This document shows, piece by piece, positions 1 to 2,971 of a DNA stretch of 5,820 bases; position 1 is the first letter of the stretch; each line of letters starts with the position of its first letter. This DNA comes from Promethearchaeota archaeon. GTDB lineage: Archaea > Asgardarchaeota > Thorarchaeia > Thorarchaeales > Thorarchaeaceae. The notes below the pieces were generated by a model. That model was not told the DNA's origin. It saw only the letters and a list, made by a program, of their open reading frames with translations, and made no database searches. Location of the stretch: positions 6,810-12,629 of the forward strand of contig JALVPN010000124.1 of NCBI GenBank assembly GCA_027031765.1, given 5' to 3'. Both the position numbers and the translations under genes were made by a program.

Positions 1-275
1 CGGAACAACTTGAACGCGTTCACACCATACCTGTGGCTCGTGTCGCTGTCGAGCTCCTCTGGCAGGTTGACTATCCTTATGACCCCGTAGGGACACTTCT
101 TCACGCAGATCCCCTCTCCTGAGCACAGTGCCTCCACTATGACCGGGGGCTTTGTCGGCCCCTCTGGGAAGACTACGGTCTCATCGCCGGTCCTCACCCT
201 TGGACAGAACCTCTGACACTCGTGGGCACAGTCCTTTGGTCGGCACCTGTCACGGTCAACAATGGCAATCCGCAT
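1..275 (-). CDS. ABCE1: Ribosome recycling/biogenesis ATPase ABCE1 (RNase L inhibitor homolog), N-terminal Fe-S domain; runs off the left edge
   Basis: Manual minus-strand translation from ATG at 275: MRIAIVDRDRCRPKDCAHECQRFCPRVRTGDETVVFPEGPTKPPVIVEALCSGEGICVKKCPYGVIRIVNLPEELDSDTSHRYGVNAFKLF. It has the ABCE1 signatures RIAIV..D.C.P..C...C..FCP, ICVKKCP, I.IVNLP..L and HRYG.N.FKL, plus an upstream SD motif. Confidence 0.97.
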   Translation of the reverse strand, partial: MRIAIVDRDRCRPKDCAHECQRFCPRVRTGDETVVFPEGPTKPPVIVEALCSGEGICVKKCPYGVIRIVNLPEELDSDTSHRYGVNAFKLF

Positions 276-280
276 CTATA

Positions 281-290
281 TCACCTCACC
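281..290 (-). promoter_or_regulatory. Shine-Dalgarno motif for ABCE1
   Basis: Minus strand reads GGTGAGGTGA, then 5 nt (TATAG), then the ATG at 275. Matches the archaeal GGAGGTGA consensus. Confidence 0.8.
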
Positions 291-321
291 TGCCAGGGAT
301 GGCCACCCTCTCCAGTGACTG

Positions 322-328
322 CTTATAG
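322..328 (-). promoter_or_regulatory. Possible TATA box for ABCE1
   Basis: Minus strand CTATAAG, 47 nt upstream of the start codon, consistent with a short leader containing the SD. Motif match only. Confidence 0.35.
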
Positions 329-462
329 CGGTTCCTCTACCCCCCGTCGTGGTCGTGAGTAGGTGCCTTGGGACATGCCACATGTTGTACTGTGTCATCC
401 CTACAGACAGGGATACTTGAATAGTCTGGCTGCCACAATGAGATGTGGTGGCATGACATAGG

Positions 463-627
463 ATGACTCGACACATTACTGCTTTCGATGCCAAGTCATT
501 TCGTCGAGGGATACCTCCTGCTGGTATGGCCGGCCAGCAGTCGAAGAGGATCTGTGATACTCTCAGCGACGGGTTTGATGTGGAAGTGTTCCGTGCCAAG
601 GACTTGAAAAAGAAAGTAGGGACATGA
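463..627 (+). CDS. Possible small hypothetical ORF (54 aa) or gene remnant
   Basis: ATG463 to TGA625-627: MTRHITAFDAKSFRRGIPPAGMAGQQSKRICDTLSDGFDVEVFRAKDLKKKVGT. Divergent from ABCE1 with protein-like composition, but no family recognised and only a weak SD. Confidence 0.2.
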   Translation: MTRHITAFDAKSFRRGIPPAGMAGQQSKRICDTLSDGFDVEVFRAKDLKKKVGT

Positions 628-971
628 CTGCAATCCAGTCATGGACTTATATACGTACACTGGAGCACCATTCCTTTGGGAGAACAGTGCTCATTGTTCT
701 TCTCATAACACTCCGTAATAAAGACTTTGGATATACTGTTTCTGAAGGCCCTGTCCAGACATTGCCCCAGATGTCCTGTGGCTCCGTCCGTGCAGACAGC
801 GTCCCCAGCCAGTGACTGGGCGGGGTATGTCCTGACTGACCAAGTCCTAGACACTACGTATGCATCAGCCCTCGCGCCTTAGTACTCGACATGCTGGCCA
901 TGGCCGCCGTCCTCGTTGGTCTCAGTCATGCGTCACCATTGGCTGGACTGGAGCTGGCCCCATAGCCCCAT

Positions 972-1265
972 TTGGAAAAGCTTTTGTTACCTGCTGATGA
1001 CGGGGTGCTGGGTCTGTTGGCAATGGACTTGCTGAAACGTTTCCTGGGCATCTGGGGTTGGCGGAGGGACTACACAGTTGATGTAATGAGGTCGCAGAGT
1101 CCACTGAGTGACCTGCTCCGCCTTGTACGGGCCGCCACGTTCCTGAAGATCACCGGTCGCGACCTTGGTGTCTCGACTGTCACAGACCCCGACACACCGG
1201 GCACATCACATACCGCAGGCCGATTCTCACCACTTGCCCGTCTTGCGCGACGGCGGTGCGAATGA
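972..1265 (+). CDS. Uncertain hypothetical ORF (97 aa from TTG972, or from ATG1023); may be a pseudogene fragment
   Basis: Open frame with plausible codon usage but no recognisable motif. The same frame is open upstream (840-962) beyond a single TAG at 963. Confidence 0.25.
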   Translation: MEKLLLPADDGVLGLLAMDLLKRFLGIWGWRRDYTVDVMRSQSPLSDLLRLVRAATFLKITGRDLGVSTVTDPDTPGTSHTAGRFSPLARLARRRCE

Positions 1266-1296
1266 GTGATAAGTACAGACTGCTCTTAGGGTCTGT

Positions 1297-1370
1297 TGGC
1301 GGGATGATGATGCCCCTTTGGCGAGTGTTTCGTCAGCACGATGACCCTCTAAACCGCAATCTGACCGCCA
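1297..1370 (+). ncRNA. Box C/D 2'-O-methylation guide sRNA (archaeal snoRNA-like)
   Basis: Perfect C box ATGATGA at 1304-1310 and perfect D box CTGA at 1361-1364. Perfect 6-bp terminal stem TGGCGG(1297-1302)/CCGCCA(1365-1370) in kink-turn register (3-nt bulge GAT before the GA pair). Internal degenerate D' (GCGA 1321-1324) and C' (ACGATGA 1338-1344) flank a small hairpin GTGTT/AGCAC. Intergenic location, 74 nt. Confidence 0.82.
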
Positions 1371-1404
1371 CCCCGGACTGTGCACTCATTCCACCTGTGT
1401 GCGA

Positions 1405-1707
1405 CTAGCCGGTACGCTTGATGATGTGGTAGCCGAACTGGGTCTTGACAGGGTCTCTTGTGACCTGGCCGACCTCGAGGGCTAGCACGGCCCGCTCGAA
1501 CTCGGGCACCATCTGTCCACGTGTGAACCAGCCCAGGTCACCACCCTTCTTCTTTGAAGGGCACGAGCTGTACTCACGCGCAAGCCTCGCGAAGTCCTCG
1601 CCCTCCTCTGTAATCCTACGGATGAGCTCCACGGCCTGACTGTGCTTCTCTACAAGGATGTGGCTCGCACGCATCTTGCCACCTGATGCCTTCTTCTTCT
1701 TTCCCAT
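1405..1707 (-). CDS. ppiC: Single-domain parvulin-type peptidyl-prolyl cis-trans isomerase (rotamase; PpiC/PinA/Par14-like)
   Basis: Motifs [32 protein letters not shown]...L and [18 protein letters not shown] at 1716-1712, 4 nt before the ATG. Confidence 0.96.
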
Positions 1708-1756
1708 GTTCTCACCATCTTGTCATGGTCAGGTGCACCCACTGCCCCCCCGGAGT

Positions 1757-1762
1757 CTTAAA
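1757..1762 (-). promoter_or_regulatory. Possible TATA box for the parvulin gene
   Basis: Minus strand TTTAAG preceded by purine-rich GGGCAGAG, about 50 nt upstream of the ATG at 1707. Confidence 0.35.
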
Positions 1763-1765
1763 CTC

Positions 1766-1795
1766 TGCCCCCACATACCTCTCTTGCCCCCACAT
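1766..1795. repeat. Direct repeat TGCCCCCACAT x2 (19-nt period) in the divergent promoter region
   Basis: Exact 11-mers at 1766-1776 and 1785-1795, plus a partial TGCCCCC at 1743-1749. Confidence 0.7.
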
Positions 1796-1894
1796 CCCCT
1801 GTGCGAGTAGTGTCCAGTGAGTAATATCCCTGTGGGCACCACAATCAGACACTGTTTCTTTACTCGGGGTCACGGTGTGCCCAGTGGTGACGTC

Positions 1895-2149
1895 ATGAGA
1901 GTCGTGACAATCTGCATGCCCGAGTCGTACATTGAGGGCGTGGACAGACTGATTGAACGTGGGATGTACCCCAACCGTTCTGAGGTGATCCGGATTGCAA
2001 TCCGCGACCTGCTCTTGGAGGAGCTCTGGGGTACTGATAGGCGTGTGCGGTCGCTCCCGGTGGCGTCTGCTGACAGTGGTGCCCCCATAGGGGTGCATCA
2101 CCGGCTGGGGCAGCGTCCACTGCCGTCCTGTACCGGGCAACGCGACTAG
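1895..2149 (+). CDS. Ribbon-helix-helix (CopG/Arc/MetJ, CdrS-like) transcriptional regulator, 84 aa
   Basis: MRVVTICMPESYIEGVDRLIERGMYPNRSEVIRIAIRDLLLEELW shows an N-terminal beta-ribbon and the G.YPNRSE.IR.AIR.LL helix motif of archaeal RHH proteins. SD GGTGA at 1886-1890 supports ATG1895 over the track's GTG1817. Confidence 0.88.
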   Translation: MRVVTICMPESYIEGVDRLIERGMYPNRSEVIRIAIRDLLLEELWGTDRRVRSLPVASADSGAPIGVHHRLGQRPLPSCTGQRD

Positions 2150-2162
2150 ACACAAGCTACGC

Positions 2163-2168
2163 TTTTTT
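2163..2168 (+). terminator. Oligo-T tract, candidate archaeal terminator for the RHH gene
   Basis: TTTTTT 14 nt after the RHH stop codon, in otherwise GC-rich DNA. Confidence 0.45.
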
Positions 2169-2266
2169 AGGTCTGCGTACAGATGTAGTGCCGGAAGTCA
2201 GGTCGTCCAGCGTGTTGCACTGGTCGGCCCGGGGACCGTATTGAAGCCAAAGGAGTCCACCGTAAC

Positions 2267-2971
2267 ATGGGGATCATGAGATTCTTCGGTCGAAAGAAGA
2301 AAGAAGAAAAACCTGACGAGGAAGCCGAAACGGCGGCGGCTGGAGCAGATGCCGCTGCTGAGGGGGCCGGGCCCGCAGAGTCTGAGGCTGTAGCCCCAGG
2401 AGTGGCTGAGGAGGCCGCTGAGACCGGCGCTGTAGAGGTTACTGCAGCCGAAGTGGAAATTGAACCCGCCCCAGCCGCTACCGAGGAGGCTGCTGCCCCA
2501 GCCGAAGAAACGCTTGAATACGACCTCTCTGAGGTCGAGGAGGCCGAGGCCAGACGGGCACCATTAGGGGACACGATTCCCTACCACTCCACACTGCAGG
2601 ACCGGTTGATATACCTGTTCGGTGACGCGGAGGTCGCGCGGGGAATCGAGGCGCCCGACTCGTTCTGTATTGAGTTCATGGCCATGGGCGAGCGGTTCCG
2701 TCTAGAAAAACCGTCAATGGGCGATGTGCAGGTCAAGACCGGGGCTGCCCGTGACAGCGACGTCTTCATACGTATTGCGAACGAGGTCGTATCCGAACTC
2801 CTATCGGCATCGGACTTCTCGGAGTTCTCGGATATATTCATGCGCTACTACCGGAGTCCTGAGCCAGACCGTTACGTCAAGGTCGAACTGCGGAAGGATA
2901 TCACGGACATGAACCGTCGGGGCTACGCGCGCGTCCCAATCCTGAAGCTCCTTGCGGGCTCTCTCAGGTGA
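2267..2971 (+). CDS. Hypothetical protein with basic N-terminus, Ala/Glu-rich disordered region and possible SCP2-like lipid-binding C-terminal domain
   Basis: 234-aa ORF with strongly coding-like codon usage and AGGAG at 2251-2255. The segment FCIEF..GERFRLEK..GDVQVKTG...DSDVFIRIANEVVSELLS resembles the SCP2 strand-strand-strand-helix pattern. Confidence is for the CDS; the domain call is weaker (about 0.45). Confidence 0.85.
   Translation: MGIMRFFGRKKKEEKPDEEAETAAAGADAAAEGAGPAESEAVAPGVAEEAAETGAVEVTAAEVEIEPAPAATEEAAAPAEETLEYDLSEVEEAEARRAPLGDTIPYHSTLQDRLIYLFGDAEVARGIEAPDSFCIEFMAMGERFRLEKPSMGDVQVKTGAARDSDVFIRIANEVVSELLSASDFSEFSDIFMRYYRSPEPDRYVKVELRKDITDMNRRGYARVPILKLLAGSLR

Follow-up and report, generated by a model that had tools for sequence, protein, structure and literature searches.

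A conserved box C/D guide sRNA of the Thorarchaeaceae with a predicted 16S rRNA target in helix 30 and a D' half that very probably lacks the ancestral guide of the family

Archaeal box C/D sRNAs are bound by L7Ae, Nop5 and fibrillarin, and the base that they target pairs with the fifth nucleotide upstream of box D or box D' (the N+5 rule). In other archaea, the linker between boxes D' and C' is typically a shorter, unpaired K-loop than the one described below. No known group is more closely related to eukaryotes than the Asgard archaea. The first-pass annotation of the DNA studied here described the C/D sRNAs of this group as poorly catalogued, and we indeed found no catalogue of them in Rfam or in the literature searched, nor any study of Asgard or Thorarchaeota C/D sRNAs in that literature.

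The closest described counterparts of the RNA reported here are the sR families of Sulfolobus, Pyrococcus and Pyrobaculum (PMC7994747, PMC4644070, PMC6009581), which share with it the order of the boxes, a terminal K-turn stem and a length of about 70 nt. In addition, both possess a guide complementary to rRNA by the N+5 rule, occur where fibrillarin, Nop5 and L7Ae are encoded, have their own promoter or a place at the 3' end of an ORF, and show one guide that turns over fast while the other persists. Guides of 10-12 nt are typical (PMC4644070). The Thorarchaeial RNAs differ in several respects: their D'-C' linker is 13 nt long (12-17 nt in homologues) and contains a covarying stem; their box D' reads G[U/C]GA, and in the favoured register their box C' would read AUGA[A/C]CC, which would invert the G-C pair usually found in the non-canonical stem; and their D' and D spacers measure, respectively, 13 and 12-13 nt among relatives but 10 and 13 nt in the sequence studied here. 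They also differ from the catalogued archaeal sRNAs in their Asgard host and in having no match to an Rfam C/D sequence. Eukaryotic C/D snoRNAs resemble the present RNA in the RNP logic (Snu13/L7Ae, Nop56/58/Nop5 and fibrillarin) and in the N+5 rule, and they often have one functional guide, a degenerate C'/D' motif and a longer, sometimes paired linker. However, they are mostly intron-encoded or polycistronic, and nucleolar.

The window, which is the whole stretch of DNA analysed (5,820 nt), corresponds to positions 6810-12629 of contig C124 in a MAG of the Thorarchaeia (Asgard), the host genome G000, which comprises 229 contigs and is 95% complete. The closest relatives of its parvulin gene come from Candidatus Thorarchaeota MAGs (83% identity). 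Among the sequencing runs listed, a single one contained the locus, a DNA run from a hydrothermal-vent metagenome that is probably the source sample. The window contains the following genes, together with genes for triosephosphate isomerase, an ARMT1-like phosphatase and a NIF3 protein.

3-275, minus strand: N-terminus of ABCE1 (full gene at C124:5267-7084)
972-1265, plus strand: orf97, an uncharacterised small protein with no Pfam match
1405-1707, minus strand: parvulin PPIase

ABCE1 and orf97 are both conserved as upstream neighbours of the sRNA and make up a conserved neighbourhood. The orf97 protein itself is weakly conserved (28-37% identity), and in many Thorarchaeial genomes its gene immediately precedes the sRNA. 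A Pfam search returned nothing for orf97 and the neighbouring ORFs, and a tRNA scan of the window returned no tRNA. We also observed that the roughly 700 nt between the ABCE1 start and orf97 (window 276-971) are without a credible ORF, with G+C down to 47%, and contain a perfect 8-bp hairpin at about 625-645; this segment is without a homologue in the fetched loci of relatives and without a second copy in the host genome, and in the few relatives in which both genes were located their spacing is roughly 100-600 nt. Three further sizeable ORFs, at 1712-2155 (minus strand), 2167-2574 (minus strand) and 2267-2971 (plus strand), likewise lack a Pfam match. Because the second and third of these overlap each other on opposite strands, probably no more than one of the two is real.

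Judged by its sequence, window 1297-1370 (plus strand) is a genuine box C/D sRNA of about 74 nt that is conserved in the family Thorarchaeaceae. Its parts, including two registers for box C' and the spacer that follows it, are as follows.

1266-1275, plus strand: TATA-like element GTGATAAGTA, directly after the orf97 stop codon
1297-1302, plus strand: TGGCGG, the 5' half of the terminal stem, which pairs perfectly with 1365-1370 over 6 bp
1303, plus strand: K-turn bulge base G
1304-1310, plus strand: box C, ATGATGA
1311-1320, plus strand: D' spacer or guide TGCCCCTTTG, 10 nt
1321-1324, plus strand: box D', GCGA, a variant of CUGA
1325-1337, plus strand: D'-C' linker, 13 nt, which forms an internal stem-loop
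1325-1339, plus strand: internal stem-loop (G1325-C1339, U1326-A1338, G1327-C1337 and U1328.G1336; loop 1329-1335)
1338-1344, plus strand: ACGATGA, box C' in the register of the first-pass annotation
1338-1347, plus strand: box C' region; in the favoured register, bulge G1340-A1341-U1342, sheared G1343/A1344, and C1345-C1347 opposite C1322, G1321 and G1320
1345-1360, plus strand: D spacer CCCTCTAAACCGCAAT, 16 nt in the register of the first-pass annotation
1348-1360, plus strand: D guide in the favoured register, 13 nt
1361-1364, plus strand: box D, CTGA
1365-1370, plus strand: 3' strand of the terminal stem, CCGCCA

All of the boxes, stems and coordinates given by the first-pass annotation, including G1356 and C1316 as the fifth bases upstream of D and D', were found in the sequence. 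That annotation named conservation of the boxes and the terminal stem in relatives as a check on its reading, and the alignments revealed such conservation. ATGATGA (columns 10-16) is invariant in 38/38 aligned homologues, while column 9 is G in 31/38 and A in 7/38; box D CTGA is likewise invariant across all homologues in this alignment; and pair 4 of the terminal stem covaries in an alignment of 14 sequences (GC 5, UA 3, AU 2). The terminal stem is followed by a 3-nt bulge, G-A-U, and then by GA, which we read as K-turn geometry because this is the established box C/D fold. An extension of the stem through GTCTG (1291-1295) and CGGAC (1374-1378) was also proposed. These strands can pair through 4 Watson-Crick pairs and 1 G.U pair, with an internal loop between them and the main stem, but no counterpart was evident by eye in the flanks of the relatives compared.

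Both strands of the 2.95-Mb genome were scanned for boxes C and D combined with a C'-like box and a terminal stem of 3 bp or more; this site alone matched, and reversed-sequence controls gave 0 matches. A relaxed scan, which combined a C box, a D box and a 9-mer complementary to rRNA, gave too much noise to be of use (61 matches vs 20 in the control). The minimum free energy fold of 1285-1385 is not the C/D fold and is unremarkable (z = -1.47), as is expected for a K-turn RNA that depends on protein.

Blastn searches with window 1250-1420 against 40 relatives revealed matches in 13 of the 24 genomes of the same family, centred on box C', the D guide and box D, and the homologues of all 13 share one layout. 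A covariance model, R1, was built from 14 homologues. With it, a single copy was located in each of 59 of the 86 family genomes, belonging to 11 of 16 genera (E = 1e-12 to 1e-22). The other 27 of the 86 gave no match to R1, and because several of them are 95-99% complete, the RNA is not universal in the family; guide-pattern matches in family genomes without an R1 match were without a box C and were treated as chance. R1 found nothing in the single genome of the sister family, and in the host genome no other match was better than E = 1.8. In the 14-sequence alignment, the proposed pairs are paired in 81% of cases, vs 23-49% when the partners are slid, and 6 of the 10 pairs change on both sides. 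A search of the whole window against Rfam with cmscan (E up to 10) gave three chance matches elsewhere and none overlapping 1291-1378. Such an absence is expected for lineage-specific guides, and at the level of sequence the RNA is therefore a new family rather than part of a catalogued one.

In the D guide, positions 2-11 counted upstream from box D (bases 1359 to 1350) form 10 contiguous Watson-Crick pairs with the 16S rRNA of the host. The target reads GGAGCUUG[C]GGUUUAAUUG (G000, C48:6179-6188); the paired segment 5'-UUGCGGUUUA-3' lies within GGAGCUUGCGGUUUAAUUG, and the core of the guide complement, UUGCGGUUU, was found at C48:6179-6187. This 10-pair match is unique among the available rRNA pieces and the 35 tRNAs of the host, the reverse complement of the guide as an 11-mer occurs nowhere else in the host genome, and shuffled guides gave a chance probability of 0.012 (1.2%). 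The host rRNA is incomplete, the 16S contig ending 4 nt past the target site, and the target sequence is shared with five relatives. Across the 38 homologues, guide positions 3-11 are invariant, position 2 alternates between A and G, either of which can pair with U, and positions 12-16 vary freely. Hence the conserved stretch of the guide (positions 2-11) is exactly the stretch that is paired.

By the N+5 rule, G1356 is predicted to face the methylated cytidine, which would be the C of UUG[C]GG. We take this cytidine to correspond to about position 952 of E. coli, in the 5' strand of helix 30; this numbering was assigned by eye against the E. coli sequence, with the 907-926 primer site and m2G966/m5C967 as presumed anchors. 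The first-pass annotation predicted a Cm paired to G1356, and a conserved target in the host's own 16S with a C at N+5 now agrees with this prediction. The search of the genome's rRNA and tRNAs that it proposed for the guides was also performed, and the D guide matched 16S only.

The proteins of the expected RNP are encoded in the host genome. Fibrillarin and Nop5 are adjacent at C217:19313-20796 (PF01269, 295.6 bits; PF01798, 221.8 bits), and L7Ae lies at C40:41361-41639 (PF01248, 94.9 bits). From the established archaeal C/D RNP, we infer that the RNA is expressed and assembled with these proteins and directs methylation. L7Ae would bind the terminal C/D K-turn and the internal, stem-closed C'/D' K-turn, and a Nop5 dimer and two fibrillarins would then assemble on the sRNA. 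The D guide (1350-1359) would pair with nascent 16S rRNA at UUGCGGUUUA, and fibrillarin would 2'-O-methylate the cytidine opposite G1356, which would sit in the small-subunit head, in the 5' strand of helix 30. The first-pass reading of this locus as an archaeal box C/D guide sRNA is supported by family-wide covariation, the protein genes and the conserved 16S target.

The RNA is probably transcribed from a TATA-like box of its own, which lies at 1266-1275, some 22 nt ahead of the stem. As the first-pass annotation stated, GATAAGTA is present at 1268-1275, and when the sequences are aligned at box C, the element shares columns with the clear TATA boxes of relatives (TTTATAG, ATATTTAG and TATATAAC). 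These lie about 30-37 nt upstream of box C, the same distance as in the window, and are preceded by purine-rich, BRE-like runs, which suggests that 1266-1275 is a promoter element. In the window and in many relatives, orf97 ends just before the TATA-like box, and read-through from this upstream gene, with co-transcription followed by processing, is possible.

The proximity of orf97 also bears on the idea that the motif does not act as a free-standing guide and is instead a cis-acting, L7Ae-binding K-turn of the orf97 3' UTR, or else that it arose by chance or is decaying and has no function here. The gene is a conserved neighbour on the same strand and ends 31 nt upstream, L7Ae is known to bind K-turns in mRNAs (PMC5539422), and the D' guide has degenerated in the window. 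However, an mRNA element needs no 10-nt complement to rRNA placed exactly by the N+5 rule. In addition, the boxes are present in the full order C, D', C', D; the conserved extent of the guide equals its pairing with 16S; the RNA is single-copy and kept in 11 genera; compensatory changes occur in both stems, one of them specific to this lineage; and the TATA-like box stands at a fixed distance. We therefore consider a non-guide element highly improbable, and it is very probable, on the comparative evidence, that the locus encodes a box C/D sRNA whose D guide directs a Cm in helix 30 of 16S rRNA and whose D' half is without the ancestral guide of the family, that is, a single-guide RNA.

Helix 30 is also targeted in Nanoarchaeum equitans, where its strands are the targets of sR15 (Dennis et al. 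2015, PMC4644070). In sR15 both guides act, on opposite strands of helix 30 at about G930 and G1218 (own numbering), whereas in the window a target could be assigned to the D guide only. There is no sequence homology between the two RNAs, and the likeness is seen at the level of the helix. A closer counterpart came from our search of about 314 Asgard genomes outside the Thorarchaeaceae, in which a single genome from another Asgard family, G375, was found to contain a C/D sRNA with the D-guide core AAACCGCA (locus L161, about 1440-1530; G375:C195). In that RNA, AAACCGCA is followed by two bases and then by CUGA, so that the predicted N+5 cytidine in 16S is the same. In contrast to the window, its layout is compact and canonical, with a 10-nt D' spacer, a CUGA box D', a 6-nt linker, an AUGAUGA box C' and a 12-nt D spacer, and its D' guide is unrelated to that of the window. 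The shared guide core could reflect either homology or convergence. In eukaryotic 18S rRNA, the corresponding cytidine (C1177 in yeast, C1234 in human) is not known to be an Nm site, and uridines near it are pseudouridylated.

The internal boxes D' and C' deviate from the consensus and are joined by a covarying stem of 3-4 bp. In the 14-sequence alignment, the outer pair of this stem covaries (AU 6, GC 4, GU 4), and the middle pair is CG in 13 sequences, comprising all of the relatives, and UA in the window only. This compensatory double change from CG to UA shows that the fold is under selection in the host lineage. Box D' is GTGA or GCGA in most relatives and differs in G015, G001/G016, G007 and G008, and its GA is conserved in 33 of 38 sequences. 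In the same alignment, a GG before D' and a CC after GAUGA[A/C] are invariant in 36-38 of the 38 sequences, although they fall outside any pairing with rRNA, and in two relatives a G-to-U change in D' is accompanied by an A-to-G change in C'.

The first-pass annotation placed box C' at 1338-1344 (ACGATGA). This sequence is present, but the conserved GG/CC and the co-occurring D'/C' changes favour a register 3 nt downstream. In this register, the linker stem would act as the canonical stem of an internal K-turn, G1343.A1324 and A1344.G1323 would be sheared pairs, and C1346-G1321 and C1347-G1320 would be pairs of the non-canonical stem. The D spacer would then be 13 nt long, rather than the 16 nt of the earlier register, and in relatives it is 12-13 nt; both values exceed the 10-12 nt usual for guides (PMC4644070), though 13 nt comes close. 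The C-D' spacer, expected to be 12-13 nt long, is 10 nt in the window vs 13 nt in relatives. The choice of register leaves both predicted targets unchanged.

In contrast to the D guide, the D' guide has changed in this lineage. Most relatives have a 13-nt D' spacer with the conserved core GAAG[T/C]AGGGATG, the best target of which in their own 16S is GGUC[C]CUGCUUA, at about 558-569. The T/C alternation stands opposite a G, and in G009 the guide and the target show a compensatory change. The D' half is lost or changed in genus g2 and in G015. The D' guide of the window is shorter by 3 nt than that of the relatives, and the two sequences are unrelated, although the host's own 16S retains the ancestral site. 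The first-pass annotation predicted that this guide directs a Gm paired to C1316. No significant target was found: searches of the host's own rRNA pieces, its 35 tRNAs and the full-length rRNAs of relatives gave nothing above chance. Exact 10-mers complementary to the guide occur 9 times elsewhere in the genome, vs about 5.6 expected, and none of them lies in a tRNA or rRNA gene. A target may possibly lie in the rRNA that is missing from the host assembly, namely about 540 nt of 23S and 34 nt of 16S (about 2157-2700 and about 930-963, respectively, as numbered in relatives).

Alternatively, the RNA could be a genuine dual guide, with a D' guide that is particular to this lineage, functions and has acquired a new target. 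In favour of this, the K-turn formed by C' and D' is preserved, and the change that sets its stem apart in this lineage is compensatory, so this half is under selection. Three candidate sites were considered. The first, 16S G939 (E. coli numbering), lies 13 nt upstream of the D target and offers 8 pairs with ACAAGGGGUG (6 Watson-Crick and 2 G.U). The two guides of an archaeal sRNA usually target sites less than 100 nt apart (PMC7994747), and with G939 as the target, the RNA could also clamp two nearby 16S segments as a folding chaperone. The second, at about 16S position 198 (own numbering) in a variable helix, offers 8 Watson-Crick pairs with AAAGGGGC (about 194-202), in a genome-specific stretch. 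The third is G23 of tRNA-Leu (CAG/GAG/UAG), a molecule whose resemblance to the D' guide had been noted in the first-pass annotation. The resemblance is real, in that the host tRNA-Leu CAG and GAG carry CAAAGGCGCA, matching the guide at 9 of 10 bases, and UAG carries CAAAGGCGCU. However, a C.C mismatch lies only two bases away from the target, and an equally good score was reached by 145 of 300 shuffled guides, so that tRNA-Leu is not supported as a target. The rRNA sites are also at the level of chance by shuffled guides: P = 0.19 for G939, which adjoins the D target, and P = 0.39, genome-wide, for the site near 198. In addition, the 10-nt D' spacer is under the usual length, and the D' variant was found in no other genome or JGI metagenome contig, the 4 matches there being unrelated. 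A functional, re-targeted D' guide thus seems improbable to us. Rather, the D' half has kept its K-turn while losing the ancestral guide of the family, and is most likely structural only; the D' guide of the window is an orphan and probably vestigial.

Two further C/D sRNA candidates were observed in the host genome, on the plus strands of contigs C40 (about 159700-159810) and C144 (about 47400-47510). These candidates have TATA boxes, terminal stems, CGAUGA C' boxes, D'-C' linkers of 11-12 nt and D spacers of 15 nt, and one of them has AUGA as box D. One guide is complementary to the anticodon loop of tRNA-Leu(CAA), and the other to the motif UAACUAUGAC. Thermophilic archaea have many more C/D sRNAs than mesophiles, M. 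maripaludis having seven (PMC7994747), and a small set of sRNAs in the host genome would fit this pattern.

The rRNA genes of this group showed peculiarities of their own. In the host they are fragmented, with 16S across contigs C48 and C110 and 23S across C103 and C143. The relatives have their 16S and 23S on separate contigs, and several of them contain large insertions, with a 16S of 2411 nt in G009 and a 23S of 3539 nt in G003. The host 16S has an insertion of about 40 nt after GGCUGAAA (C48:6093-6131; L001:2373-2411), at what we take to be about E. coli position 908, and this insertion, possibly the remnant of a mini-intron or an expansion segment, forms a stable hairpin (z = -3.45). In G009, about 843 nt are inserted at this site.

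The mechanism proposed for this RNA is a textbook one and is not new. What sets the RNA apart, to a modest degree, is that its host is an Asgard archaeon, that its internal K-turn is closed by a stem and that one guide has turned over. The sRNA is an annotation overlooked by ORF-based pipelines. It yields a family-wide covariance model and a predicted, testable ribose methylation at the equivalent of 16S C952 in helix 30, as well as a second predicted site in relatives, at about 16S position 560, and it presents a clear case in which one guide was kept and the other replaced. It also offers a start for comparing the layout of Asgard sRNAs with that of eukaryotic snoRNAs. We would suggest, tentatively and as a rather unlikely generalisation, that the C/D sRNAs of Thorarchaeia might have an architecture between the compact archaeal and the eukaryotic ones, with a stem-closed C'/D' K-turn containing a flipped G-C pair, a long linker, and one guide frozen throughout the class while the other turns over or decays. 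If this were true, the freezing of one guide and the decay of the other would represent a route to the single-guide snoRNAs of eukaryotes.
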